A stretch of 46,715 nucleotides of DNA from Coriobacteriia bacterium (lineage in GTDB: Bacteria; Actinomycetota; Coriobacteriia; Coriobacteriales; Eggerthellaceae): contig JAUNCA010000001.1 of assembly GCA_030526775.1 (NCBI GenBank), positions 13,384 to 60,098 of the forward strand. The letters run 5' to 3'. Made by a program: the position numbers and the translations under genes. The notes below the pieces were generated by a model. The model made no database searches and was not told where the DNA came from. It worked only from the letters and a program-made list of their open reading frames with translations. This document shows, one piece after another, positions 6,933-33,406 of the stretch (positions are counted from its first letter, which is position 1; every line of letters begins with the position of its first letter).

Positions 6933-7388
6933 ATGAGGTACGCCCACACGAACATCATCGCGCGGGACTGTTTCAAGCTTATCGGCTTCTACAAGCAGGT
7001 GTTCGGCTGCAAGTCGATTGGGGAAGTGCGAAATCAGAAAGGCGAATGACTGGATCGGCTGACGGGGTTAACCGACGCGCATATCGCCGGCGAGCCTCTG
7101 CTTCTGCCCGGGTACGGCGAAGACCGTCCGGCTTTGGAGATTTACTCGTACGACCATATGGAAGAAAGTGCGTTGTTCAGCACGAACCGACCCGGGTTTG
7201 CTCACATCGCATTCGAGGTCGATGACGTAAGGGAAAGCCTGAAACGGGTCCTCGAGTACGGCGGTTCCATGGTGGGCGAACTTGTTACGGTCGACAACCC
7301 GAACCACGACAACAAGCGGGCCGTTTTCGTGTGCGCCCGGGACATAGAGGGACACATCATAGAGCTGCAGAGCTGGGAAAACCTGTAA
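6933..7388 (+). pseudogene. VOC/glyoxalase-family protein interrupted by an in-frame TGA (7047-7049)
   Basis: ATG at 6933 gives MRYAHTNIIARDCFKLIGFYKQVFGCKSIGEVRNQKGE, then TGA. The same frame continues LDRLTGLTDAHIAGEPLLLPGYGEDRPALEIYSYDH...FAHIAFEVDD...IIELQSW. Both halves are VOC-like. Confidence 0.75.
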
Positions 7389-7544
7389 TCGACGGCGGAT
7401 GAAACGTCGTGACCACCATTTGAGGATTGTCTCCAAATGGTGGCTGTTCCCATCCACGCCATTCTTCGGCTCCGCGCTGCGCTCAGAAAGACGCGCGGGC
7501 CGGCACCGTGGTTGAGGCGCTCGAGCACGTGGTTCGCGTTCTTC

Positions 7545-7585
7545 CGTCCGCTCTGTGCGATGCCGAATCCCGCACAGAGCGGACG
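7545..7585 (+). terminator. perfect 15-bp hairpin (possible terminator or regulatory stem)
   Basis: CGTCCGCTCTGTGCG - 11-nt loop - CGCACAGAGCGGACG, about 160 nt after the VOC stop. The U-tract is weak. Confidence 0.35.
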
Positions 7586-7807
7586 AAGTATCTGTTACCG
7601 AGGAGGAGATTCCCCGGCCAAAAGCCCCCTGTTCAACGATCCGCGCAAACGCTTATCCCGGAGGGTATCAGCGCCCCTTCGGGCATCAAGTGCTGACGGG
7701 ATGGGACAGAATCGCGAAAACAGCAAGATAGAACAGACGCCATTCGCGAATAATTCCGTGAAGCAGATTCTCCTTATAGTCACTACCGAATCGCATGGGA
7801 GGCCATC

Positions 7808-8110
7808 ATGAAAATCGAGGAAGCTGCTGACAGGGTCGGGAAAGACCGTATTCGTCAGGCTATGGAGTCCGACAACGCCGACGCCCTGAAGGACCTGTTT
7901 GACGAGGAAGGCATGTCGCTTACTGACGAGCAGCTCGACAGCATCACTGGTGGCATCTTTACGCCGCATGAGGCGAAGATTGCGATGCGTAAGCTGAAGC
8001 AGTCTAACGGCTCCGTTCTCGCCGGTGGATCCGCGTATTTCGATCCGTACGACCCGAATAGTCCCAACTGGACCGGGCCCCCCGGTACCGATACGACCGC
8101 GACTGACTGA
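7808..8110 (+). CDS. Nif11-like / double-glycine leader peptide (candidate bacteriocin, RiPP or pheromone precursor)
   Basis: 100 aa. GGGAGGccatc precedes the ATG. The leader ends ...NADALKDLFDEEGMSLTDEQLDSITGG (aa 49), matching the LSxxELxxIxGG cleavage motif. The 51-aa tail is Pro/Asp/Thr-rich and has a second AGG. Confidence 0.65.
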   Translation: MKIEEAADRVGKDRIRQAMESDNADALKDLFDEEGMSLTDEQLDSITGGIFTPHEAKIAMRKLKQSNGSVLAGGSAYFDPYDPNSPNWTGPPGTDTTATD

Positions 8111-8212
8111 GGCGCGTAGCCCGTCTGTCTCCATGCATAAGCCAATCGCCGTATCGCGTGACCCGAGCTGCCACGTGCCCGGTTATGCCGCGCCGGCAGT
8201 TCAGGTGCTGAT

Positions 8213-9082
8213 ATGCCCATGAACATTTGCGCGTCTGCCGACCATCGACTCCTAACGGAAAGCGCCCTTGCGCAATTGCGTCACGACGAGGGCTTGGCTT
8301 CGCTTGTGCGCGCGATGCGCGCAGAAGATCGCTCCGTGGCCGAGCAGGTGCAACGCCTCGGGGTTTCAAGTGTGCACATTGCTTGCCAGCGCAGCATGAA
8401 CGCACTGTTAGAGAGCGCGTGCGCGGAATCCCCGGCAACAACGTTGGACCCCGTGGAGTTTGCGCAGGCCATCTACAAGTTACCCCGCACGCCGCGCACC
8501 GCACCCATCCGTAGAATAGTTCGCGAGATTGCGCGCGTCTATGCGCGGGCGAGCACAAAGGGTCTGCCTATCCCGAAGCGCCCCGACGACTTTCATGCCT
8601 TGTGGGAATGCGCCATGGAGGGTGAGCCGCGATGGAGCGAAAAAGACTTTACGCCCAAGTTCCGCGCTTCCGCGGCACGGATATTAAAAGGGCAGTCGTT
8701 AGAAACCGTGTTGCAGGTGTGCGTGGATCCCGCCGATTACGAAACGGAGCTTGCGCGCCTGCTGGCGTTTCTCCAGGATGAAAGCCTCGAACTGGAAGTA
8801 CGTGCCGCTTGTGGATACGCGCTATTCGAATGGATTCACCCCTTCGTGGATGGGAATGGCCACGTGGGGAGGATGCTCGCGCTCTCGCTTCTGCAGGACT
8901 CCTATTCGCTTCCCACGATGGTGTGCTTCTCTTCGGCACTTGTGTGGGGAAAGCTGGGAACCTCCTGTCTATTCGCCCCGCTGCGCAGCGGCGACGGGAC
9001 GCTTGTCGATTTCTGCCGCGGTACGCTCGAGCAGCTGCATACCGAGCAGGCGTTGGCAATGGAAATCGTTGCGGAGGCCTAA
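8213..9082 (+). CDS. Fic/DOC-family protein with a variant active-site motif
   Basis: HPFVDGNGHVGR at about aa 210, versus the canonical HxFx(D/E)GNGRxxR (first Arg replaced by His). 289 aa. Confidence 0.75.
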   Translation: MPMNICASADHRLLTESALAQLRHDEGLASLVRAMRAEDRSVAEQVQRLGVSSVHIACQRSMNALLESACAESPATTLDPVEFAQAIYKLPRTPRTAPIRRIVREIARVYARASTKGLPIPKRPDDFHALWECAMEGEPRWSEKDFTPKFRASAARILKGQSLETVLQVCVDPADYETELARLLAFLQDESLELEVRAACGYALFEWIHPFVDGNGHVGRMLALSLLQDSYSLPTMVCFSSALVWGKLGTSCLFAPLRSGDGTLVDFCRGTLEQLHTEQALAMEIVAEA

Positions 9083-9135
9083 TGCGGGAGAGCGTTTCCG
9101 CCCTGCGCAGGCAACAGATTTGACCTCTGAAGCGG

Positions 9136-9174
9136 AAAAGCGGCCTGAGAGCGTGTTCACCTCCGGCCGCTTTT
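9136..9174. terminator. bidirectional intrinsic terminator between convergent genes
   Basis: AAAAGCGGCCtGAG - loop - CTCcGGCCGCTTTT. An A-run precedes and a T-run follows. It lies between the Fic stop (9082) and the small minus-strand ORF stop (9205). Confidence 0.65.
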
Positions 9175-9204
9175 GTGTCCCTGTGCTATGAGGGCTCGAA
9201 ACTC

Positions 9205-9327
9205 TTACTTATGGCGTCCCCACTCCGCATTCAGGAAGGCGCGAATGCCTGCGATGCCAGCGCAGACAAGGCCCAGGGCGATGAGCACCGACGAGTCGAT
9301 GACGAGGACGGGTTCTTTCTTTGCCAT
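9205..9327 (-). CDS. 40-aa single-pass membrane peptide (not in the ORF track)
   Basis: MAKKEPVLVIDSSVLIALGLVCAGIAGIRAFLNAEWGRHK. GAAGGAGATCACC precedes the ATG. It starts 27 nt downstream of the SRPBCC stop, on the same strand. Confidence 0.55.
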   Translation of the reverse strand: MAKKEPVLVIDSSVLIALGLVCAGIAGIRAFLNAEWGRHK

Positions 9328-9354
9328 GGTGATCTCCTTCTTGGTGATGTTGGA

Positions 9355-10068
9355 TTAGACGTCGATGAACTTCTTGCCCTCGGCAACGGCCTTGATGACG
9401 TCGGCCATGCGTGTGGACATAACACCGGAGGACCAGCCCCAGATTATGCCGACGACGATTGCCATCTGGATCTGGTTTTCGACTTCCACGTACACGGTGT
9501 TGCGCTGCACCATGCGGGTGCGCTTGCCGTCATCGAGCGGCTCCAGGAAGAAGCCCCAGGTCCAGCCGTATTCCTTGCAGCCATGAGGAAGCCAGGCGAC
9601 GGCGCCCTGCTGGGTGGGCGGGTTGCCCGTGTCGGAGCAGCCGACGATGTACTTGCCGGGCTCATGCAGCTTGACCTCGTGGCCTACGCCCTGGTCGCCG
9701 TAGAACACCCAGTCGCCAACCTTCGTGTCCTGCCAGCGTTCCTGTGCCGGATAAGTGTTGTAGATGCGGAAGGAGGCCAGGTGCTCGAAGTTCCAGAAGC
9801 TGTAGAAGCCGGCCTTGTTCTGGCCAATCTGGTTGATGAGCGGCCACACCTTCTCGGGCGGCGCGTCGATCTCGGTGACCATCTGCGAGACCATCACCTG
9901 GTCATCTGGATAGGGCAGCAAATCGTCGCCCGGATACGCGCCCCTCGGGGGCGTGTCCTCGGGAGCCACCTTGTACTTCTTGCTGAATTGGTTCAGCCCG
10001 AGAAGCACGGCCGCCGGAGCGGCGATGCCTACAGCCGCGAGCTGCAGTCCGGAAAACTTGAATTTCAC
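9355..10068 (-). CDS. SRPBCC (START/polyketide-cyclase-like) family protein with an N-terminal membrane anchor
   Basis: GTG start after GAAGGAG. N-terminal hydrophobic segment LQLAAVGIAAPAAVLLGL. Paralogous to 15469-16506 (shared xYPGD(D/E)L..., W.(F/Y)FL(E/I)PL...(R/T)R motifs). Confidence 0.65.
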   Translation of the reverse strand: MKFKFSGLQLAAVGIAAPAAVLLGLNQFSKKYKVAPEDTPPRGAYPGDDLLPYPDDQVMVSQMVTEIDAPPEKVWPLINQIGQNKAGFYSFWNFEHLASFRIYNTYPAQERWQDTKVGDWVFYGDQGVGHEVKLHEPGKYIVGCSDTGNPPTQQGAVAWLPHGCKEYGWTWGFFLEPLDDGKRTRMVQRNTVYVEVENQIQMAIVVGIIWGWSSGVMSTRMADVIKAVAEGKKFIDV

Positions 10069-19651: not shown

Positions 19652-19816
19652 CTAGTCCTTGCCTTCCGCGTGCCAGTAGCCCTTTCCGTCTTGGTAGTAG
19701 TAGCCGCCCGCGACTTGCTCGAGAGATTCGTCGTCGAGAGCCTTAACTCCTTCGAGGTTCTCGAGGGGCAGATTGCCGTCCGCTGCGTCTTTCAGGGCGT
19801 CCAGAGCTTCCTTGGT
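19652..19816 (-). CDS. double-glycine leader peptide, core YYYQDGKGYWHAEGKD; no canonical start codon in frame
   Basis: The frame reads TKEALDALKDAADGNLPLENLEGVKALDDESLEQVAGG|YYYQDGKGYWHAEGKD*. AAAGGAAAGGAACCA lies upstream, but the sequence reads ATAGACC where ATGACC is expected, placing a TAG (19817-19819) directly 5' of the frame. Below the track's size cutoff. Confidence 0.5.
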   Translation of the reverse strand, partial: TKEALDALKDAADGNLPLENLEGVKALDDESLEQVAGGYYYQDGKGYWHAEGKD

Positions 19817-24871: not shown

Positions 24872-25360
24872 ATGCGCGAGCGCGAGTTCGAACGGCTCTA
24901 CCTGCAGAGCTATGGAACCGTGTATGGTTTCGTGCGCGCCCGCATGGCCTCCGATGCCGATGCGGAGGACGTTGTATCCGAGGCGTTTATAAAAGCGGCC
25001 CGTTCGTTTGCATCGTTCAATCCAAGCCGGGCAAAATTCGGTACCTGGGTTACCGCCATCGCAAAGAACTGCATGATCAGCCACTTCCGGCGCGACCGCC
25101 CAACCACCCCTATAGACGAGGTCTCCGAGAGGGCGTTTGCAGTATCGGGTGGGCAGGAGGCTGTCGACAATCGTGAGCTCGTGAAGCAGCTGCTTGCATG
25201 CCTAGATGACAACGAGCGCATGTTCGTCGCCATGAAATACCGCGACGGCATGAGAAACGTCGACATCGCGGCCGAACTGGGCATGAACCCTTCGACGGTT
25301 GCGACGGTGCTTGCAGGTGCCCGTACGAAGATGCGTGCCAAGTTGGAAGGCAGTAGGTAA
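24872..25360 (+). CDS. ECF-type sigma-70 family RNA polymerase sigma factor
   Basis: 162 aa. Region 2 (DAEDVVSEAFIKA...FGTWVTAIAKNCMISHFRR) and region 4 (NERMFVAMKYRDGMRNVDIAAELGMNPSTVATVLAGARTKMR). Confidence 0.85.
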   Translation: MREREFERLYLQSYGTVYGFVRARMASDADAEDVVSEAFIKAARSFASFNPSRAKFGTWVTAIAKNCMISHFRRDRPTTPIDEVSERAFAVSGGQEAVDNRELVKQLLACLDDNERMFVAMKYRDGMRNVDIAAELGMNPSTVATVLAGARTKMRAKLEGSR

Positions 25361-25361
25361 C

Positions 25362-25868
25362 ATGGCAGATACCACGAGCTCCATTTTCAACAAGAAGGCG
25401 ACCGAAAAACTGCGGAGCCCCGACGACCTCGATAAATACGTACGCGTGACGAACCCCAGCGTCTGGGTGGTGTTCGGGGCATGCGTGGCGTTGCTGGTGG
25501 GTCTTTTGGCTTGGGGCATTTTCGGGTCTGTTGCCACCAGCGTGTCGACCACGGGAGCCTGCGTCGACGACAAGGCCATATGCTTCCTTACCGCCGAGGA
25601 GTCCACGAAGGTGAAGGAAGGCGACGCTGCGAACGTCGACGGCGAGCGGATGACGGTTGTCCGCATAGAGCCGACGCCCGTCTCGGTTGACGAGGCCCAT
25701 GCCATTTTGGGTAGCGACTACTTAGTGAGCGCGCTCGTCAAGGAGAATTGGGGTTATCAGGTTACCTTCGAGGGTGACACCTCCGGCCTTGCAGCCGGCG
25801 TGCCCCTTGCCGTGAATATCACGACCGAGCGCATCGCGCCGATCAGCCTGATTCTGGGGAGCCGGTAA
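25362..25868 (+). CDS. short HlyD-like bacteriocin-secretion adaptor (NHLM/NHLP-system type)
   Basis: FNKKATEKLRSPDDLDKYVRVTNPSVWVV followed by one TM helix resembles the N-terminus of NHLM-type HlyD proteins. 168 aa. The start is 2 nt after the sigma stop. Confidence 0.55.
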   Translation: MADTTSSIFNKKATEKLRSPDDLDKYVRVTNPSVWVVFGACVALLVGLLAWGIFGSVATSVSTTGACVDDKAICFLTAEESTKVKEGDAANVDGERMTVVRIEPTPVSVDEAHAILGSDYLVSALVKENWGYQVTFEGDTSGLAAGVPLAVNITTERIAPISLILGSR

Positions 25869-25916
25869 TGAGGAACTTGGCCCTTTCCCCCAAACATATG
25901 AACGGGGAGTTGCGCC

Positions 25917-28076
25917 ATGCCTAGCAAAGTGGCGAAAGTCCCGCAGGTCATGCAGATGGAGGCGCTGGAATGCGGTGCCGCCTGCCTGACGATGATCCTG
26001 GCCTATTACGGTCGCTGGGTGCCGCTCGAGCAAGTGCGCGCCGATTGCGGCGTGTCGCGCGACGGCAGCAAGGCGTCGAATGTGCTGAAGGCGGCACGCA
26101 GCTATGGCCTGAAGGCGAAAGGCATGACGTTTTCGACCGAGGCGCTGCGCAAGAAGGGAACCTTCCCCTGCATCATATTCTGGAACTTCAACCATTTCGT
26201 CGTGCTCGACGGCTTCAAGGGCAACAACGCCTATATCAACGACCCCGCGTGCGGCCAGGTGAAAGTTCCCATCGAGGAATTCGACAAGAGCTTCACCGGC
26301 ATCGTGCTGGTGTTCGAGAAGACCGATGCCTTCGAAGAGGGCGGCCAGAAGCCCGATACCATGAGGTTCGCCCGCGCCCGCCTCGAGGGTTTGGGCGCCG
26401 CCATCGCATTCGTCATGCTTACGGCTGCTATCACCTCGGTCGTCGCGATACTGAACACCTCCCTCGGGCAGGTGTTCATGGACCGCATCCTCACCGGTAA
26501 TAATCCCGAATGGCTCGTGCCGCTTACCGTGGTGATGCTCGTGCTCGCGGGGATAACCGGCATTGTTTCCATCTTGAACGCCGTGTACCTCATGCGCATA
26601 CAGGGCAAGATCGCGGTGGTATCTTCCTCGCGGTTCATGCGGCATCTGCTGCATCTGCCCGTGGGGTTCTACGCCCAGCGCATGGTGGGCGACCTGCAGC
26701 AGCGGCAGTCCGCCAACGAGAACATCGCGTTTTCGCTCATCGGCCAACTCGCCCCGGTTCTCGTGAACATCGTGACGCTCGTGCTGTACCTGGCCATCAT
26801 GCTCAACTACAGCGTGCTGCTTACCGCCGTGGGCTTGCTCACCGTGGTGATGAATGCGTTCATCGCGCGCTACATCTCGAAAAAGCGCGTGAATATCGCG
26901 CGCGCGGGCGCCATGAACGCGGGCAAGCTGTACGCGACCACCGTCGGCGGCGTCCAGATGATCGAGACCATCAAGGCCGCCGGCGCCGAGAACGGGTATT
27001 TCGCCCGGTGGGCTGGATACCAGGCGGCGGTGAACGAATCGGTGGCCCGCTCGACGCGGCTGAACACCTATCTGGGTATGCTGCCGACGCTCCTCGTTCA
27101 GCTTGCGAACATCTTGGTGCTGGTGTTGGGCATCTGGCTCATCATCGAGGGCGCGTTCACGCCGGGCATGCTGCTTGCCTTCACCGGATTCCTCGCGTCG
27201 TTCATGGCGCCCATCCAGCAGATAATCAACTTGGGCCAGACGGTGCAAGAGATGCAGACGCAGATGGAGCGCGTGGAAGACGTGCTCCGCTACCCCGTGG
27301 ATGTCCCTGAAGAGCCCGAAGAGCCGGTTTCGGTGGACGAACTCGACCGTGAGAAGCTGCGTGGCGAAGTGGACCTCAAGGGAGTCTCCTTCGGCTACTC
27401 GCCGCTTGAGCCGCCGCTCATCCAAGATTTCGACTTGCATCTGGACCCCGGGCAGTGGGTCGCGCTTGTCGGCGGTTCGGGCTGCGGCAAGTCCACCATT
27501 GCCAAGCTCGTGAGCGGGCTGTGCGAGCCCTGGTCGGGCGAGGTGAGCTTCGACGGCACGCCGATAAAGGAAGTTCCCCGCGCGGTATTGCGCGGTTCGC
27601 TCGCCGTCGTGGACCAGGATATCGTGACCTTCGACGACACCGTGTCCGACAACGTGAAGCTGTGGGACCGCTCCATCGAAGACTACGAGGTTATCCTGGC
27701 CTGCCGCGATGCGGATATCCACGACGTCGTGGCAGCGCGTGAGGGCGGTTATTCCAGCCGCATCCTGCCCGGTGGCCGCAACTTCAGCGGCGGGCAGCTT
27801 CAGCGCCTGGAGATAGCGCGCGTTTTGGCGCAAGATCCTACGATCATCATCCTGGACGAGGCGACCAGCGCGCTCGATGCCCAGACGGAGGCCGAGGTGA
27901 TACGGCGCATCCGCGATCGCGGCATAACCTGCATCGTGGTGGCGCATCGACTCTCGACCATACGCGACTGCGACGAGATCGTGGTGCTCGACGACGGCAA
28001 GGTCGTGGAGCGCGGCACGCACGCGGAATTGCTGGCCAAAGACGGCGCATACGCGGAGTTGGTGCGCAATGACTAA
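25917..28076 (+). CDS. C39-peptidase-domain ABC exporter (bacteriocin/NHLP-type, peptidase/permease/ATPase)
   Basis: N-terminal QMEALECGAACLTMILAYYG (catalytic Cys), NHFVVLDG (His), INDPA. 6-TM domain. Walker A GGSGCGKST, signature FSGGQLQRLEIARVL. Confidence 0.9.
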   Translation: MPSKVAKVPQVMQMEALECGAACLTMILAYYGRWVPLEQVRADCGVSRDGSKASNVLKAARSYGLKAKGMTFSTEALRKKGTFPCIIFWNFNHFVVLDGFKGNNAYINDPACGQVKVPIEEFDKSFTGIVLVFEKTDAFEEGGQKPDTMRFARARLEGLGAAIAFVMLTAAITSVVAILNTSLGQVFMDRILTGNNPEWLVPLTVVMLVLAGITGIVSILNAVYLMRIQGKIAVVSSSRFMRHLLHLPVGFYAQRMVGDLQQRQSANENIAFSLIGQLAPVLVNIVTLVLYLAIMLNYSVLLTAVGLLTVVMNAFIARYISKKRVNIARAGAMNAGKLYATTVGGVQMIETIKAAGAENGYFARWAGYQAAVNESVARSTRLNTYLGMLPTLLVQLANILVLVLGIWLIIEGAFTPGMLLAFTGFLASFMAPIQQIINLGQTVQEMQTQMERVEDVLRYPVDVPEEPEEPVSVDELDREKLRGEVDLKGVSFGYSPLEPPLIQDFDLHLDPGQWVALVGGSGCGKSTIAKLVSGLCEPWSGEVSFDGTPIKEVPRAVLRGSLAVVDQDIVTFDDTVSDNVKLWDRSIEDYEVILACRDADIHDVVAAREGGYSSRILPGGRNFSGGQLQRLEIARVLAQDPTIIILDEATSALDAQTEAEVIRRIRDRGITCIVVAHRLSTIRDCDEIVVLDDGKVVERGTHAELLAKDGAYAELVRND

Positions 28077-28097
28077 GACGACGAGGCGGGTGCGCTC

Positions 28098-30287
28098 ATG
28101 AGGTGGATGGAGTCGCAAATCGAGACCCGCGCGAAGTTCGATGCAGAGGCAACCGAGCGGGCGTATGCCGAGCTTGCGAGCAGCGTAAGCGACCCCCGTC
28201 GTGCCCCGGCGTTCACGGTAGACGACATCGAGCAGGCGGATGGCGCTGCGAAGGCGTGCCTAAAGTACGTCGGCGTGGAGTCGGGGTCGGTCCCCGAAGG
28301 CATTACGGATATCGAAGACCGCCTTGACTGGCTGTGCCGTCCCACTGGCACGATGCGGCGCAACGTGCGCCTGGAGAAAGGCTGGCAGTCGCAGGCCTTC
28401 GGCGCGATGCTCGGGCACCTTACCACCGGCGAAGCGGTGGCCATCCTGCCGCGGAGCGTGCGGGGCTACTACTACCTGGAGCCCGGCAGCGGCCGCAAGG
28501 TGAATATAACGCCCGAGGTGGCAAAACGCATCGACGAGGATGCCGTGCTGTTCTACAAGCCGCTGCCTGCGAAATCCCTGAAAATCCGCGACCTCGTGGC
28601 CTTCATCTTCCGCGTGTTCGACCGGAGCGATTACCTGCTGGTGTTGGCGGCGGCCCTTGCCGTAGTGCTCATCGGCCTTGCGCCCGCATGGGCGAACGAG
28701 GTCGCCTTCGGCGTGGTGGCCCCCTCCGGGCAGGCGGCGCTCATTCTGCCGATCGCCGCATTGTTGCTTGGCGTTACGGTGGCTTCGGCGCTCATAAGCG
28801 CATGCCGCACCTTGGTGATGGCTCGCGTGTCCACGAAGCTCGATGTGGTTACCGAGGCCGCCACCTTTGCGCGCGTGCTGGCGCTGCCGACCTCGTTCTT
28901 CAAGCAGTATTCGGCGGGCGATTTGGGAAGCCGCGTCTCGAATGTGACGGCGCTTGCCCAGAAAATCGCATCGATTCTCTTGGGTTCGGGACTTTCCGCA
29001 CTCTTGTCGCTTGTCTACATCGTGCAGATTGGCGCATACGCGCCTTCGCTTGCGCTTCCGGCATTGGCTATCGTCATCGCGCAGGCGGCACTCACGTTGG
29101 TGGTTACGCTCATCACCATCCGCTACGAGCGGGTGTCCATGCAGGAGTTCTCGAAGCTTTCCGGTACGGTGACGGCGCTTTTGTCCGGCATCCAGAAAAT
29201 CAAGCTTGCCGGCGCCGAGGACCGCGCGTTCGCGAAATGGGCCCATGGGTACGCCGAGTATGCGCGCCCGACGTACAACCGGCCGGCGCTTATCCGCGCG
29301 CTGCCCGCCATCGTGGCGCTCGTCGGGCTCTTGGGCGCCATCGCCATCTACTTCCTCGCGGGCACGACGGGTGTTTCCGTGGCGAACTACATGGCGTTCA
29401 ACGCAGCGTATGGCCAGGTGACCGCCGCCATCATGGCAATCGCGGGCATCGCGGGCGAAATCGCGCAGATCGACCCCATGCTCGACATGGTCGCTCCCAT
29501 CCTGGAGGCGACCCCCGAGACCGCCGAGGAGAAACCGAGCGTGGAGTCGCTCAGCGGTGCTATCGAGGTATCGGGCTTGGCGTTCCGTTACAACGAGAAT
29601 AGCCCGTACGTGCTGCAGGACATCTCCTTCAAGGTGCGTCCCGGTGAATACGTGGCGCTCGTGGGCAAGAGCGGCTGCGGCAAGTCGACCATCATGCGCC
29701 TGCTCCTGGGCTTCGAGACCCCCGAGCGCGGTTCGATTTTCTACGACTCGCATGATGTCCAGAAGACGGACCTGCGCAGCCTGCGCCAGCATATCGGCGT
29801 GGTCATGCAGGATGGCGGCCTGTTCATGGGCGATATCGCGAGCAACATCACCATCTCCACCCCGCTGGCGACGCTCGACGAAGCGTGGGAGGCGGCCGAA
29901 ATCGCGGGCATCGCCGACGACATCCGCAAGATGCCGATGGGCATGCAGACCTTGGTGACCGAAGGCGGTGGCGGCGTTTCAGGCGGCCAGCGTCAGCGCC
30001 TGATGATCGCCCGCGCCGTATGCGGCAAACGCCGTATCCTCATGCTGGACGAGGCCACGAGCGCGCTCGACAACAAGACACAGAAGTACGTGAGCGATTC
30101 GCTCGACTCGCTGAAGTGCACGCGCATCGTCATCGCCCATCGCCTTTCGACCGTGCGCCATTGCGACCGCATCCTAGTGGTGGACCAGGGCGTCATCGCC
30201 GAAGAGGGCACGTACGAGGAGCTTATCGAAAAAGGCGGCATCTTCGCCGAGCTGGTGGAGCGCCAGCGCCTGGACAAGGAGGGGTAG
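28098..30287 (+). CDS. second ABC exporter subunit (permease/ATPase) with a non-peptidase N-terminal domain
   Basis: About 150-aa N-terminal domain without a catalytic Cys motif. TM domain. Walker A GKSGCGKST, signature VSGGQRQRLMIARAV. Resembles the ABC2 partner of NHLM systems. Confidence 0.85.
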   Translation: MRWMESQIETRAKFDAEATERAYAELASSVSDPRRAPAFTVDDIEQADGAAKACLKYVGVESGSVPEGITDIEDRLDWLCRPTGTMRRNVRLEKGWQSQAFGAMLGHLTTGEAVAILPRSVRGYYYLEPGSGRKVNITPEVAKRIDEDAVLFYKPLPAKSLKIRDLVAFIFRVFDRSDYLLVLAAALAVVLIGLAPAWANEVAFGVVAPSGQAALILPIAALLLGVTVASALISACRTLVMARVSTKLDVVTEAATFARVLALPTSFFKQYSAGDLGSRVSNVTALAQKIASILLGSGLSALLSLVYIVQIGAYAPSLALPALAIVIAQAALTLVVTLITIRYERVSMQEFSKLSGTVTALLSGIQKIKLAGAEDRAFAKWAHGYAEYARPTYNRPALIRALPAIVALVGLLGAIAIYFLAGTTGVSVANYMAFNAAYGQVTAAIMAIAGIAGEIAQIDPMLDMVAPILEATPETAEEKPSVESLSGAIEVSGLAFRYNENSPYVLQDISFKVRPGEYVALVGKSGCGKSTIMRLLLGFETPERGSIFYDSHDVQKTDLRSLRQHIGVVMQDGGLFMGDIASNITISTPLATLDEAWEAAEIAGIADDIRKMPMGMQTLVTEGGGGVSGGQRQRLMIARAVCGKRRILMLDEATSALDNKTQKYVSDSLDSLKCTRIVIAHRLSTVRHCDRILVVDQGVIAEEGTYEELIEKGGIFAELVERQRLDKEG

Positions 30288-30291
30288 CGTC

Positions 30292-30594
30292 ATGGAGGCC
30301 CGGACGAGCATCGAAGGGAACAAGGCGACCATCGAATTGGTGGGCAAGATCACGGCTAACGCGCTTCCCGATTTAGAGGCGGCGATAGACGGCATGCCCG
30401 TTGCGATACGCGACCTGGATATCGTTCTGGCCGATGTGGATTATGTCTCGTCGGCAGGGCTTCGCGCGTTCGTGCGCGCTAGCAAGGCCATCGCGGGCCG
30501 TGGGGAAGAGTTTCGCTTGGTGCATCCCAACGATACCGTGTGGGAAGTACTCGAGATAACGGGTTTTGGCGATGTCTTCGCCGTTGTGAGATAA
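30292..30594 (+). CDS. STAS-domain anti-sigma-factor antagonist (SpoIIAA/RsbV-like)
   Basis: 100 aa. DVDYVSSAGLRAFV with the conserved phosphorylatable Ser. AAGGAGGGG precedes the ATG. Confidence 0.85.
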   Translation: MEARTSIEGNKATIELVGKITANALPDLEAAIDGMPVAIRDLDIVLADVDYVSSAGLRAFVRASKAIAGRGEEFRLVHPNDTVWEVLEITGFGDVFAVVR

Positions 30595-30616
30595 AAGCGG
30601 GCAGGAGGAGTTGAAG

Positions 30617-33406
30617 ATGCCAAAGGCCGACGTGGCCAAGAAGGAGAAGCCGAAGATACTGCTGTGGCGCGGCATGCTCGATAGCAGGAACGAGCAGCAT
30701 CGCGTGGTCATCGCCATCACGCTTGCCGTGGCGAGCGCGGTGTTTTCGTTCACGCAGCTTGGCTTTGCAAACTTCGTGCTCCCAGACGGAACGTCCGTGT
30801 ACATTGTCACGTTGTTGCAGATCGTGGCTCTGGGGTCGCTGTTATTGGGAACGGTCGCCGGCACGGCAATCGGGCTATTCGCGGGCGGCGTGCTCTATCT
30901 CCACGCCTGCGTGCTTCCGCTCGACCACTACGAGTTGACGTTCGTCACCCCCGCGTCTTCCATCCTCTTTCTCGGGCTTTCGGGGTTCTTTCTTGGCATT
31001 TTGTTCGCCTTTGCCCTGCGCAAGAATCCATCGCAGGTGAAGCGCGTTGTCTACATCACCATCGTCTGCCTCCTGGTCTCTTCGTTCTACCACTTCAATT
31101 TCATCGCGAACGCGTTCTTCTTGCTTGTGGCGGAGTTTGCCGACGTAGCCGAGTCGTCTGGAGCGCGAGCATTCCTGCTCGAGGAAACGATATCGCGGAT
31201 TTTGCGTCTCGGAGACGTCAACCTGCAGATGTGGGCCACCACGTTTCTCATGGCGGTCCTCTGCGGCATCGGCGACTACATTGCACGCCGGGTGAATGCG
31301 CACGAAGGTGCGGTGGGCATGCGCGTCGTGTTCAATGCCTGGCTTGCGATTGTGGTGACGCTCTCCTTCATGGCCATGGCGGCTGTGACCTTTGCGGTTT
31401 CCACGCAGGATGCAATTCGAGACGCCGAAGACGAAATGCGCAGCGAGGTTTCCTACCTCACCAGGCAGATTGAAGCAGCCGACAACCGGATTAATCTGTA
31501 CTCGGATGTCCTCCAAGGCGGAAACTTCGATTTCGACGCTGCAGATGAGGGGCTCATGTACGACATGAGCGACGTCCTCGAGCCGCGCAACGTGCTGAAC
31601 GGGTATACGTATGAAGGCGATGGCATCGTTCTCGTAACGGTGAAAGGTGGGGTTTACGCGAGCGATTACGATCACATTCCGGTTGGCACCGAACTCGATA
31701 AAGCGTTTGTGAACACAACGCTTCAGGCCATAGAGAAAAGCATCGAGACGGGAACCATTCAGCGTTTTGTCTTAGACGACCCTGCGGTATTGATTGCTTC
31801 CACGGAAAGCGAGGATGTGGCGGGTGTCGAGGGCTCAGAACCGCCGCGCATCGCATACCTGTATGCTGAGGAGGCCCCGAATCTCTTTAAGGGGCAAGAT
31901 GGCGAGAGCATCGACCTCGACCAGAAGGTTATCTTGATTCGAACCTCCGAGCAGGTATTTGCGGAGCGTGGCGCGGTGATGGTGTGGACGACGCTTTCGG
32001 AACTCGTATTGATGCTTGCGGTGTTCGCGCTGGTGTTCCAGCTGCTGAACAGGTTGATCGCCCGGCCCATCGACAAGACGAACGAGGCCTTGGCGCGCAT
32101 AACGGCAGGCGACCTCGAGGCGCGTGTGGACGCGCATGAAACCAGCGAGTTCGAGTCGCTTTCCGCGGGCATCAACTCTACTGTCGACACCCTGCAAGGG
32201 TGGATTGCCGAGGCGGAAAGCCGCATGGATACGGAACTCGAAACCGCCAAAGCCATTCAGGAATCGGCGCTTCCCCAGGTGTTCCCGCCGTATCCGGACA
32301 TCTTCCGGTTCGACGTCTACGCCACTATGAAGGCTGCCAAGCAGGTTGGCGGCGACTTCTACGACTTCTTCCTCATCGGTGATTCCGGACCCGATGCGGG
32401 CAAGCTCGGGTTCGTGATGGCCGATGTGTCGGGCAAGGGCGTTCCCGCGGCGCTGTTCATGATGAAGGCCAAGACGCAGATTCGCGACTATCTGGAGAAC
32501 GGCGTGGCGCTGGGCGAGGCCATCGAGAATGCGAACCGGCTGCTGTGCGACGGCAACGAAGCCGGTATGTTCGTTACCGCGTGGGTGGGCGTGCTCGATT
32601 ACGCCACGGGCCACGTGGATTACGTGAATGCCGGACACAACCCGCCGCTGCTCTGGCAGTACGACGGCGGTTGGCGCTGGCTGAAGCAGCGGTCCGGTTT
32701 ACCGTTGGGCCTGTTCGATGGCCTGCCCTACAAGACCCATTCCGTCGACTGCAAGCCGGGCGACCAGTTCCTGTTGTACACGGACGGCGTGACCGAGGCT
32801 ATGGATACGGACGACGCGCTTTACGGTGAGGACCGCCTGGAGCGACTTGTCAACGAGCATTACCTCTTGCATCCGCGCCGGCTTGTGGAGACGGTTCGTC
32901 GAGATGTTTCCGCGCATGCGCATGGCGCCGAGCAATCGGACGATATCACAATTCTGGCATTGGAGGTTGGCGTGCCGCCCGAGATAACCGCGACCCTTGT
33001 CGTTCCAGCAGATGTGGACGAGCTGCCGCGTGTAAACGAGTTCATCCACAACGAGCTCGACCGGCGCCTGTGCCCGGTGCGCGCCCAGAACCAGCTGGAC
33101 ATTGCCGTCGAAGAGCTTTTCGTCAACGTGGCGCATTACGCGTATCCGGATATGCCGGCCGAGGAGCCGGGCGAGGTGCGCGTGAGCTACACCTACAGCG
33201 CCGACCCGCCGTCGATTTGCGTGGACATTGCCGACGATGGTATCCCGTATAATCCCCTCGAGAAGCCCGATGCGGTAACCCCGGACAACATCGCCGATGT
33301 GCCGATTGGCGGCCTGGGCATACTCATGGCAAAGCGCAGCGTGGACGAAATGAGCTACAAGCGCGTGGGTTCGAGCAATGTGGTAAACATCGTGAAGAAG
33401 TGGTAA
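30617..33406 (+). CDS. membrane sensor - HAMP - PP2C (SpoIIE/RsbU-type) phosphatase - RsbW-like HATPase fusion
   Basis: About 6 N-terminal TM helices, a roughly 190-aa predicted extracytoplasmic segment, one more TM, and HAMP (ITAGDLEARV). PP2C motifs: GGDFYDF, MADVSGKGVPAALFM, YTDGVTEA, DDITILALEV. C-terminal HATPase_c_2-like boxes: EELFVNVAHY, ADDGIPYNP, GGLGILMAKRSVD. ATG at 30617 follows GGAGGAG. Confidence 0.85.
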   Translation: MPKADVAKKEKPKILLWRGMLDSRNEQHRVVIAITLAVASAVFSFTQLGFANFVLPDGTSVYIVTLLQIVALGSLLLGTVAGTAIGLFAGGVLYLHACVLPLDHYELTFVTPASSILFLGLSGFFLGILFAFALRKNPSQVKRVVYITIVCLLVSSFYHFNFIANAFFLLVAEFADVAESSGARAFLLEETISRILRLGDVNLQMWATTFLMAVLCGIGDYIARRVNAHEGAVGMRVVFNAWLAIVVTLSFMAMAAVTFAVSTQDAIRDAEDEMRSEVSYLTRQIEAADNRINLYSDVLQGGNFDFDAADEGLMYDMSDVLEPRNVLNGYTYEGDGIVLVTVKGGVYASDYDHIPVGTELDKAFVNTTLQAIEKSIETGTIQRFVLDDPAVLIASTESEDVAGVEGSEPPRIAYLYAEEAPNLFKGQDGESIDLDQKVILIRTSEQVFAERGAVMVWTTLSELVLMLAVFALVFQLLNRLIARPIDKTNEALARITAGDLEARVDAHETSEFESLSAGINSTVDTLQGWIAEAESRMDTELETAKAIQESALPQVFPPYPDIFRFDVYATMKAAKQVGGDFYDFFLIGDSGPDAGKLGFVMADVSGKGVPAALFMMKAKTQIRDYLENGVALGEAIENANRLLCDGNEAGMFVTAWVGVLDYATGHVDYVNAGHNPPLLWQYDGGWRWLKQRSGLPLGLFDGLPYKTHSVDCKPGDQFLLYTDGVTEAMDTDDALYGEDRLERLVNEHYLLHPRRLVETVRRDVSAHAHGAEQSDDITILALEVGVPPEITATLVVPADVDELPRVNEFIHNELDRRLCPVRAQNQLDIAVEELFVNVAHYAYPDMPAEEPGEVRVSYTYSADPPSICVDIADDGIPYNPLEKPDAVTPDNIADVPIGGLGILMAKRSVDEMSYKRVGSSNVVNIVKKW

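Follow-up and report, generated by a model that had tools for sequence, protein, structure and literature searches.

A small family of Fic-fold enzymes from cattle-gut bacteria is genetically linked to Nif11-type leader peptides

Nif11-derived (NHLP) leader systems and the accompanying NHLM export set were reportedly described by Haft, Basu and Mitchell in 2010 and are represented by the models TIGR03798 and TIGR03794, TIGR03796 and TIGR03797, respectively. Phosphoryl or nucleotidyl tailoring of RiPPs is known from the paeninodin-type lasso-peptide kinases, which phosphorylate a C-terminal Ser, from MccB, which adenylates microcin C, and from the lanthipeptide class III-V kinases. Unlike Fic, these tailoring enzymes have HPr-kinase-like, E1/ThiF-like and protein-kinase/APH-like folds. 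The roles known for Fic enzymes, in turn, are those of regulator, toxin and host-targeting effector, with folded proteins as targets. In the literature searched, neither a report of a Fic-fold enzyme in a leader-dependent tailoring role nor a paper linking Fic enzymes to RiPPs was found. The locus analyzed here lies in a 46,715-nt stretch of a Coriobacteriia genome (the window) and contains a member of a small, Fic-type enzyme family from cattle-gut bacteria. With the Nif11/NHLP systems it shares a helical acidic leader that ends in Gly-Gly and precedes a hypervariable core, a C39-peptidase ABC exporter with a second ABC subunit and an HlyD-like protein, and the service of several precursors per genome in trans by one exporter. 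However, the conserved partner is a Fic-fold protein rather than a LanM, a cyclodehydratase or a radical-SAM enzyme alone, and leaders of the window type have diverged too far to be recognized by the curated Nif11 models.

The locus consists of a precursor peptide gene (7808..8110; 100 aa) followed by a short Fic-fold enzyme gene (8213..9082; 289 aa), both on the plus strand, as are all other features located below. The original prediction of a peptide gene with a good Shine-Dalgarno sequence, 102 nt ahead of a Fic gene on the same strand, was confirmed in all these respects from the open reading frames and the sequence. The peptide is the one quoted originally, the Shine-Dalgarno element GGGAGG (7797..7802), read from the sequence, is 5 nt ahead of the ATG at 7808, and 102 nt separate the peptide stop (8110) from the Fic ATG (8213), the two genes incidentally sharing a frame. 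A promoter and terminator scan of 7300-9400 yielded no element that satisfied the scan rules; 3' of the Fic stop, a hairpin with a long loop, followed by a T-rich run, falls outside these rules. Two RNA-labeled runs have about the same sizes and come from the same samples as two DNA runs and, because they look like one data set deposited twice, were left unused.

The 100-aa product is a precursor that combines an acidic 49-aa Nif11-type leader ending in Gly-Gly with a hypervariable 51-aa core. The leader (residues 1-49; 7808..7954) ends in LTDEQLDSITGG, with the GG codons at 7949-7954, and the core (residues 50-100; 7955..8107) is basic in its front half but acidic and rich in Thr at its C-terminus (WTGPPGTDTTATD). 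Ser, Thr and Tyr account for 12 of the 51 core residues, in agreement with the previously noted richness of the tail in these amino acids. The description of the peptide as Nif11-like stood at the level of profiles but not for the single sequence against the curated models. The single sequence had no Pfam match at E ≤ 0.1 and no NCBIfam match at E ≤ 1, and was recognized neither by Pfam Nif11 (PF07862) nor by NCBIfam TIGR03798; among 19 Fic-associated peptides, PF07862 matched 11 and TIGR03798 matched 13. Comparison by hhalign of a profile of 8 orthologous leaders with one built from 11 Nif11 leaders of related loci that Pfam recognizes gave a probability of 97.5% (E 6.3e-12) over 33 columns ending in GG, and a leader HMM matched the window leader at E 2.8e-21. 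Judged by these profiles, the leader is a divergent Nif11-type leader. Four close homologues of the peptide were found. Among orthologues, the leader has a constant length of 49 aa (39-88% identity), and the core ranges from 16 to 55 aa (10-63% identity). Such orthologues adjoin Fic genes in L001, L003, L004, L215, L214, L006, L216, L217, L088, L168 and L169.

The second gene encodes a member of the Fic/Doc (Fido) superfamily. The protein matches Pfam Fic PF02661 with 42.9 bits (cutoff, 24; E 9.4e-11), and its AF2 model (pLDDT 89.9; pTM 0.89) shows the expected fold, in which a flap hairpin accompanies an active site of the helix-loop-helix type. Foldseek matched the model with a probability of 1.00 to 7cb8, 4rgl, SoFic (3eqx) and FICD, all class II Fic proteins, with query-normalized TM-scores of ~0.5-0.6. 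Like the class II AMP-transferases (SoFic, 3eqx/3zcn; human FICD/HYPE; Mycobacterium marinum Fic, 7cb8), the window Fic has the Fic core fold, the flap hairpin, the catalytic His, the Asp/Glu, the GNG nest and the final Arg, but it is only 14-19% identical to them in sequence. Unlike them, it has neither the (S/T)xxxE(G/N) inhibitory helix nor the C-terminal winged-helix domain, carries His for the first motif Arg, differs in its N-terminal helical region, which includes an invariant RRxxRE helix, and has a leader peptide as its genetic partner.

The catalytic motif, HPFVDGNGHVGR, spans residues 209-220 (H209 to R220; 8837..8872). As predicted, His (His217) replaces the first Arg of the canonical HxFx(D/E)GNGRxxR, and the window Fic thus departs from the full motif of canonical AMPylating Fic enzymes. 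In an alignment of 28 homologues that reaches down to 37% identity, no variation is seen at H209, P210, F211, G214, N215, G216, G219 or R220, D213 and H217 are shared by at least 90% of the sequences, and His occupies position 217 in 27 of the 28; with few exceptions, the motif residues are also kept in distant and fused Fic members. The proposal that the substitution signals altered chemistry fared less well, since Arg is found at this position in related short Fics that are also peptide associated (L207, L217, L212, P0054, P0059, P0060 and P0068). Arg-to-His is a hallmark of the close relatives, yet it argues only weakly for new chemistry because His and Arg toggle across the wider family, and for the same reason the donor is not predictable. 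A predicted flap β-hairpin (residues ~150-169; 8660..8719) begins at the invariant F150-R151; its strands cover residues 156-158 and 166-169 in the AF2 model, and the stretch aligns with the flap region of 7cb8. Collectively, the 289-aa protein retains the flap and, within the motif, the catalytic His, the Asp that binds Mg, the anion nest formed by GNG, and the final Arg. N-terminal to these elements is an invariant basic helix (A97, R100, R101, R104, E105, A107, R108 and Y110; 8495..8554), modeled as a helix over residues 94-114, and its RRxxRE pattern recurs in distant and fused members. The net charge is +6 over Fic residues 90-115 versus -8 for the leader, and the helix is proposed as a docking surface for the acidic leader.

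The co-occurrence of this Fic subfamily with GG-leader peptides in other genomes, a check proposed with the original prediction, proved strongly positive. After duplicate removal, 27 distinct Fic genes with the GNGH motif were available, and a Nif11-like double-glycine leader ORF was present within 300 bp of 18 and within 2.5 kb of 22 of these. Conversely, such an ORF was found within 2.5 kb of none of the 157 distinct Fic ORFs from other phyla that served as negative controls. Only 4 of 25 GNGR Fic ORFs from the same family or class were accompanied by a leader, and these are short or fused relatives or are located beside one (L206). The same division holds within the window's own genome, where both GNGH Fic genes adjoin Nif11-like peptides and neither of the two GNGR Fic genes does. 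In some loci (L003, L215, L217, L088 and L169), the peptide and Fic genes overlap or are 1-28 nt apart. Furthermore, Fic clades follow the type of the leader, not that of the core. The Fic family is rare: ~3% of same-family genomes carry it, and a search of 1.84 billion representatives gave only 20 clusters at E ≤ 1e-30. When genome and metagenome collections were scanned for patterns from the Fic alignment, nearly all matches were generic Fic domains, which were used as controls, and just two new subfamily loci, L087 and L088, were gained; a class-level search revealed no additional members among 400 Coriobacteriia genomes.

An NHLM exporter set that the earlier reading passed over is encoded within the same window. 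Its operon is headed by an ECF-type sigma factor gene (24872..25360; Pfam Sigma70_r2, Sigma70_r4_2 and Sigma70_ECF), followed by the exporter genes proper at 25362-30287, 17 kb downstream of the peptide/Fic pair and orthologous to exporters that directly adjoin the Fic gene in L214 and L227. The first of these genes (25362..25868) encodes a short membrane protein that resembles the N-terminal part of the NHLM HlyD-type secretion protein and matches its L214 equivalent in BLASTP at E 2e-12, the L214 gene itself being a weak match to TIGR03794. The second (25917..28076) encodes an exporter of the NHLM_micro_ABC1 type, with Pfam Peptidase_C39, ABC_membrane and ABC_tran domains and a TIGR03796 score of 949.5 bits (cutoff, 853). 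The C39 catalytic triad of this protein is intact (the Cys, His and Asp of the ECG, NHF and NDP motifs), it is the stronger of the two C39 matches in the genome, and it is 53% identical to the exporter that adjoins the Fic gene in L214. The third gene (28098..30287) encodes the second exporter subunit, NHLM_micro_ABC2, which is 47% identical to the L214 partner and scores just under the TIGR03797 cutoff (704.5 versus 709.4 bits). An NHLM-type C39 exporter, as expected for Nif11-like precursors, is accordingly present in the window, with TIGR03796 above and TIGR03797 just under the cutoff. The C39 exporter presumably cuts after GG49 and exports the core.

In relatives, the same components are found in compact operons. 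In L214, the genes for PCAT, ABC2, Fic, a radical-SAM/SPASM-NTP_transf_2 protein and the peptide follow one another on a single strand with gaps of ≤33 nt. The radical-SAM protein of L214 also adjoins the Fic gene in L006, L087, L199, L203, L216 and L217; it scores as a radical-SAM/SPASM RiPP maturase and carries an NTP_transf_2 nucleotidyltransferase domain of its own. This partner, too, had been passed over in the earlier reading. Many relatives hold such an enzyme, which could be the real maturase, with Fic as an accessory. Searches of the window's own genome for an orthologue returned only generic radical-SAM matches of 26-33% identity over partial lengths; this genome is 85% complete, and the partner may therefore be missing from the assembly. 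Three types of gene fusion, supported by several independent assemblies, were also detected: a Nif11-like leader domain without GG fused to Fic (3 clusters; leader HMM E 1e-11 to 1e-6), a radical-SAM/SPASM-Fic protein of 708 aa (11 members), and a Fic-APH-type kinase protein of ~600 aa. The loci of the fused forms retain Nif11 precursors and the exporter. The Fic gene, leader peptides, NHLM exporter and radical-SAM/SPASM maturase are, as this evidence demonstrates, genetically linked.

The Fic family probably represents an undescribed kind of peptide-modifying enzyme because its genes nearly always adjoin, or are fused with, genes for exported leader-tagged peptides; the case for Fic-dependent modification is built wholly on comparative genomics. 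Under the reading that we favor, and to which we assign an even chance, the peptide and Fic genes would be a minimal version of a conserved RiPP- or bacteriocin-like module in which Fic modifies the precursor before export. The Fic protein would be a dedicated tailoring enzyme that binds the leader, probably via its invariant Arg-rich N-terminal helices, and uses a nucleotide donor to attach a phosphate-linked group (phosphate, AMP or some other nucleotide monophosphate) to a hydroxyl side chain of the core, with the flap holding the core. The NHLM exporter would next cleave after Gly49 and export the modified core. In making the addition of a phosphate-linked group depend on a leader, the proposed reaction would resemble the known RiPP tailoring systems; the lasso-peptide kinase and MccB transfer at or near the C-terminus, and a conserved C-terminal Ser/Thr suggests the same for this family. 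The candidate acceptor is Thr97 (codon at 8096..8098), the fourth residue from the C-terminus. Each of the four orthologue groups in the clade of the window has a Thr in this position (TATD, TETL, TELP and TELP), a pattern that was noticed post hoc. Of the 22 Fic-adjacent cores, 20 have a Ser or Thr among their 5 C-terminal residues, versus 4 of 10 others (Fisher p = 0.005), in an exploratory comparison of a post hoc pattern in sequences that share kinship. Across the family, no Ser, Thr or Tyr is located at a constant distance from the GG site.

Alternatively, Fic could belong to the peptide system without modifying the precursor, as a producer immunity factor or a regulator that, for example, adds AMP to, or takes it from, the exporter, the radical-SAM enzyme or some target in the cell, or removes a group installed by the NTP_transf_2 domain. 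We consider this unlikely but deserving of serious attention. Linkage alone does not identify a substrate, and the radical-SAM/SPASM maturase present in many loci, with its own nucleotidyltransferase domain, could by itself explain peptide modification. Moreover, AMPylase and deAMPylase activities are combined in some class II Fic enzymes, FICD and EfFic among them. An AF2 model of the peptide, the natural 34-aa linker (four in-frame stops read as Gly) and Fic as a single chain is also compatible with such a role: the leader reached a pLDDT of 74-86, the core and linker remained below 50, and no docked substrate was seen, as judged by pLDDT. However, minimal loci (the window, L001, L003, L215, L088 and L169) contain the peptide and Fic with no adjacent radical-SAM partner, the Fic clades track the leader rather than the core, and the natural leader-Fic fusions suggest a direct relation between leader and enzyme. 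In addition, immunity to bacteriocins is normally conferred by small membrane proteins, and Fic proteins are not known in this role.

A noncatalytic role, in which the Fic domain would be an RRE-like leader-binding chaperone or scaffold that presents the precursor to the radical-SAM enzyme or the exporter, is improbable. The fusions of Fic to radical-SAM/SPASM enzymes and leader-like domains, the replaced first Arg of the motif, and the invariant basic helix, which could bind an acidic leader, all fit this possibility. Nevertheless, the catalytic His, Asp, Asn and final Arg and the GNG nest are invariant or nearly so in the 28 homologues and persist in distant and fused members, which would not be expected of a pure binding module, and the radical-SAM partners keep an N-terminal region of their own before the radical-SAM core.

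Still less probable, to the point of being close to dismissal, is an ordinary toxin-antitoxin pair of the FicT/FicA type, in which the small upstream ORF would neutralize a Fic toxin. Engel et al. are said to have divided Fic proteins in 2012 into classes I-III, with the inhibitory helix in a partner (class I) or in Fic itself (II and III). The small same-strand ORF directly 5' of the Fic gene resembles VbhA/VbhT and FicA/FicT modules, but a regular-expression search found (S/T)xxxE(G/N) in neither the peptide nor the window Fic, and in the 28-sequence Fic alignment, the motif formed no conserved column and occurred only 4 times, as scattered single instances. An AMEGE stretch (residues 134-138), considered as a degenerate inhibitory helix, was rejected: its likeness to the motif is superficial, as several close homologues have Ala in place of the first Glu, which is not conserved among distant members either. 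With the inhibitory motif, including the inhibitory Glu that FicT/FicA-type modules carry in the small partner, missing from both proteins, the toxin-antitoxin reading fails, as originally argued. Furthermore, the small ORF is a Nif11-type double-glycine export precursor with a hypervariable C-terminal half, relatives' operons surround the pair with a leader-cleaving exporter and a RiPP maturase, and the gene orientation is not constant, being divergent in L168 and L205 and convergent in L170. Finally, the possibility, allowed for in the original prediction, that the adjacency is coincidental, or that the small ORF is spurious, derives some support from the lack of a significant Pfam or NCBIfam match to the single peptide sequence but is effectively refuted by the census (22/27 versus 0/157), by recurrence in several genera and low-GC contigs among relatives whose Fic identity spans 32-89%, by the close homologues and strong ribosome-binding site of the peptide gene, and by the fusions that join the leader and Fic families.

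Extending the favored reading of Fic as a tailoring enzyme, the family may define a new RiPP class in which Fic reads a Nif11-type leader and adds an O-linked nucleotide monophosphate or phosphate to a Ser/Thr in the C-terminal region; taken as a whole, this extended scenario is tentative. In that case, a conjugate of peptide and nucleotide would be exported, which could be a signal tagged with a nucleotide or could represent a second way, unrelated to the first, of making microcin-C-like molecules. In Cys-rich relatives with radical-SAM and APH-kinase partners, the added group could act as a leaving group for dehydration and cross-linking, and the natural leader-Fic fusions would be enzymes with an activating leader in cis. 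If a Fic family is indeed dedicated to leader-tagged exported peptides, RiPP biosynthesis would be extended by a further enzyme fold and probably by a modification that is new as well, and Fic biochemistry would gain a substrate that is small, defined and linked genetically to its enzyme. Such a family would also point to unmined peptide gene clusters in the Coriobacteriia of the ruminant gut and, judging by GC content, in low-GC anaerobes as well.

The original prediction of a double-glycine (GG) leader peptide gene followed by a variant-motif Fic gene was borne out on rereading the sequence in its ORFs, their spacing, the Fic motif, and the Ser/Thr/Tyr-rich tail. On the + strand, an ORF scan places a 100-aa precursor peptide at 7808 to 8110, preceded by GGGAGG (read from the sequence at 7797 to 7802), and 102 nt downstream, on the same strand, a 289-aa Fic ORF (8213 to 9082) that exceeds the Pfam gathering threshold for Fic and carries the active-site motif HPFVDGNGHVGR (residues 209 to 220, bases 8837 to 8872). 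The N-terminal half of the peptide ends in LTDEQLDSITGG, and its 51-residue tail contains 12 Ser, Thr, or Tyr residues. The sequence occurs in metagenomes from bovine gut and faeces.

As a single query, the peptide matched neither Pfam Nif11 nor NCBIfam TIGR03798; the label “Nif11-like” holds at the profile level, where 8 orthologous leaders aligned with 11 Pfam-positive Nif11 leaders from related loci at 97.5% probability (E 6e-12). Four close homologues of the peptide were found. The predicted leader is acidic (net charge −8), fixed at 49 residues, and 39 to 88% identical among homologues, and the cores span 16 to 55 residues at 10 to 63% identity; a conserved, fixed-length leader with a variable core is the usual pattern for leader-guided precursors. 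In an exploratory comparison, noticed post hoc and among mutually related sequences, 20 of the 22 unique Fic-adjacent cores carry Ser or Thr within the final 5 residues, against ∼52% expected from composition alone; 4 of 10 other leader-positive peptides from the same loci do so, 3 of them encoded downstream of the radical-SAM gene within the same operon. Within the window's clade, the Thr fourth from the C terminus is invariant (TATD, TETL, TELP, TELP), corresponding to Thr97 in the window's peptide. This pattern is a lead rather than evidence and yields a concrete prediction, Thr97 as the candidate acceptor.

In the homologue alignment, Fic residues H209, P210, F211, G214, N215, G216, G219, and R220 are invariant, and D213 and H217 are retained in at least 90% of homologues. 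AF2 modelled the protein with high confidence (pLDDT 89.9), including the flap hairpin, and the model is structurally closest to class II Fic proteins, at query-normalised TM-scores of about 0.5 to 0.6 and 14 to 19% identity. The helical N-terminal 135 residues resemble no solved Fic in sequence and include an invariant basic helix (A97, R100, R101, R104, E105, R108), the RRxxRE signature of which recurs in distant and fused members and is proposed here as the leader-binding surface. The His of GNGH, which replaces the first Arg of the canonical motif, typifies the close family; it is not read as proof of changed chemistry because some peptide-associated relatives carry Arg at that position.

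A large protein collection contained 28 Fic homologues, one of them assigned by name to an Atopobiaceae MAG, and contigs were fetched for homologues at 32 to 89% identity. On nearly all of these, a GG leader ORF adjoins the Fic gene: directly upstream, often overlapping or 1 to 28 nt apart (loci L003, L215, L217, L088, and L169); divergent (L168 and L205, the latter a second copy in the window's own genome); convergent (L170); or separated by a single radical-SAM gene (L006, L214, and L216). A leader HMM built from 19 leaders was run on all small ORFs of 218 sequences (the loci and the window), and adjacency was counted after removal of duplicate Fic sequences. Among 27 distinct GNGH-type Fic ORFs, 18 had a leader ORF within 300 bp and 22 within 2.5 kb; for 157 distinct non-GNGH Fic ORFs from other phyla, both counts were 0. 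The co-occurrence of this Fic subfamily with GG leaders, originally proposed as a test, is found in other genomes. Five GNGH ORFs are exceptions: two that come first in tandem Fic pairs (2.8 kb away), two on very short contigs, and one at a locus with GG peptides of another leader type. Among 25 distinct GNGR Fic ORFs of the same family or class, 3 had a leader ORF within 300 bp and 4 within 2.5 kb; three of these four are short or fused relatives of the GNGH family (L207, L217, and L212), and the fourth (L206, 392 aa) neighbours a cluster of GNGH Fic. In the window's own genome, both GNGH Fic genes, and neither of the two GNGR genes, adjoin a Nif11-like peptide.

The second GNGH copy in that genome (G000 contig C71; L205, 1720 to 2471) is 43% identical, spans only residues about 135 to 284, and is probably an N-terminally truncated remnant; it overlaps the divergently oriented Nif11 peptide gene, whose core is IGGGDFISDVTICRVDHRCTTKK. 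Four more Nif11-like or GG leader peptides of the genome, on contigs C111 (953 to 4095) and C21 (7808 to 8095), are not beside a Fic gene. Upstream of a window-type pair, L003 (535 to 4628) encodes six Nif11 peptides recognised by Pfam or the HMM, their cores acidic and rich in Cys, and a GG leader peptide with a zinc-ribbon-like core. In the Atopobiaceae MAG (GCA_017533825.1; L004, 4747 to 5639), gene calling splits the Fic orthologue into two pieces that overlap (85 and 212 aa), a frameshift or assembly error.

The operon in L214, whose Fic is 42% identical to that of the window, consists of five same-strand genes no more than 33 nt apart. A C39-peptidase ABC exporter and a second ABC subunit come first, Fic is third, and then follow a radical-SAM/SPASM protein that ends in an NTP_transf_2 domain and a peptide of 104 aa with a window-type leader. 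The window's exporter pair is orthologous to that of L214: NHLM_micro_ABC1 (25917 to 28076; TIGR03796, 949.5 bits, above the cut-off) is 53% identical to its counterpart, and NHLM_micro_ABC2 (28098 to 30287; TIGR03797, 704.5 bits, just under the cut-off of 709.4) is 47% identical. The motifs for the C39 catalytic residues (Cys, His, and Asp) are all in place, and this exporter is the stronger of two C39 matches in the genome. An ECF sigma factor gene (24872 to 25360) opens the operon, a short HlyD-like membrane protein (25362 to 25868) precedes the exporter pair, and a 931-aa HAMP-PP2C(SpoIIE)-RsbW-like kinase protein follows (region 24872 to 33406); the sigma factor and the latter protein suggest regulated export via a partner-switching module. 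A second GG frame on the − strand (19652 to 19816), reading ...KALDDESLEQVAGG then YYYQDGKGYWHAEGKD, might be a further cargo of this exporter; it was missed by ORF scans because no ATG, GTG, or TTG follows the preceding stop.

The radical-SAM/SPASM-NTP_transf_2 protein, which resembles known RiPP maturases, also adjoins Fic in L006, L087, L199 (from the window's genus), L203, L216, and L217. In L006, L216, and L087, a tandem pair of GNGH Fic paralogues precedes its gene. No ortholog was found in the window's genome, which is 85% complete, so the window's clade appears to have the system in minimal form, peptide plus Fic.

Searched in full with HMMER, a set of 1.84 billion representative proteins yielded only 20 clusters at E ≤ 1e-30, and the next shell contained three kinds of fusion. 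In three clusters, one of which counts 7 distinct members from at least 9 contigs, a Nif11-like leader domain whose Gly-Gly has been lost (leader HMM E 1e-11 to 1e-6) is fused to the N terminus of a GNGH Fic. In the second kind (708 aa, 11 members), a radical-SAM/SPASM enzyme is followed in the same chain by a GNGH Fic at the C terminus. In the third, of about 600 aa, Fic is joined to an APH-type phosphotransferase; one such protein (L212) adjoins a Nif11-like peptide in a genome of the same family. Fused-Fic loci L226 and L227 retain directly adjacent Nif11 precursors, together with the NHLM exporter in L227. Because these contigs have 43 to 46% GC versus 52 to 65% in the others, the association probably extends beyond Coriobacteriia, as far as GC composition indicates. 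Beside both fused-Fic clusters is an unannotated protein family without a Pfam match (L226, 5530 to 6237; L227, 4793 to 5821; 43% identical to each other); L227 encodes an additional 426-aa Pfam-negative protein, and these proteins may be further tailoring enzymes.

The Fic family is genetically linked to Nif11-type precursors, the NHLM exporter, and a radical-SAM/SPASM maturase, and is fused to leader, radical-SAM, and kinase domains, with the catalytic core intact and the inhibitory motif absent. We infer that Fic would bind the leader of the precursor and transfer a phosphate-linked group onto a core hydroxyl, after which the exporter would cut following Gly49. An accessory role for Fic, whether in immunity, in regulation, or in taking off a group that the NTP_transf_2 domain installs, is compatible with the linkage data but is the less likely reading. 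That Fic is a non-catalytic scaffold is improbable given the invariance of its catalytic residues. A toxin-antitoxin pair is more doubtful still: as originally predicted, the classical reading does not fit, the inhibitory (S/T)xxxE(G/N) motif, looked for in both peptide and Fic, being in neither, and the exporter and maturase context and the varying gene orientation also speak against it. Chance adjacency is excluded, being effectively refuted by the deduplicated counts (22/27 versus 0/157 within 2.5 kb).

Within the full-text library searched, no paper connected Fic enzymes with RiPPs, Nif11 leaders, or GG peptides. The system combines a familiar arrangement, the leader-guided, PCAT-exported peptide, with a partner enzyme of a new kind.
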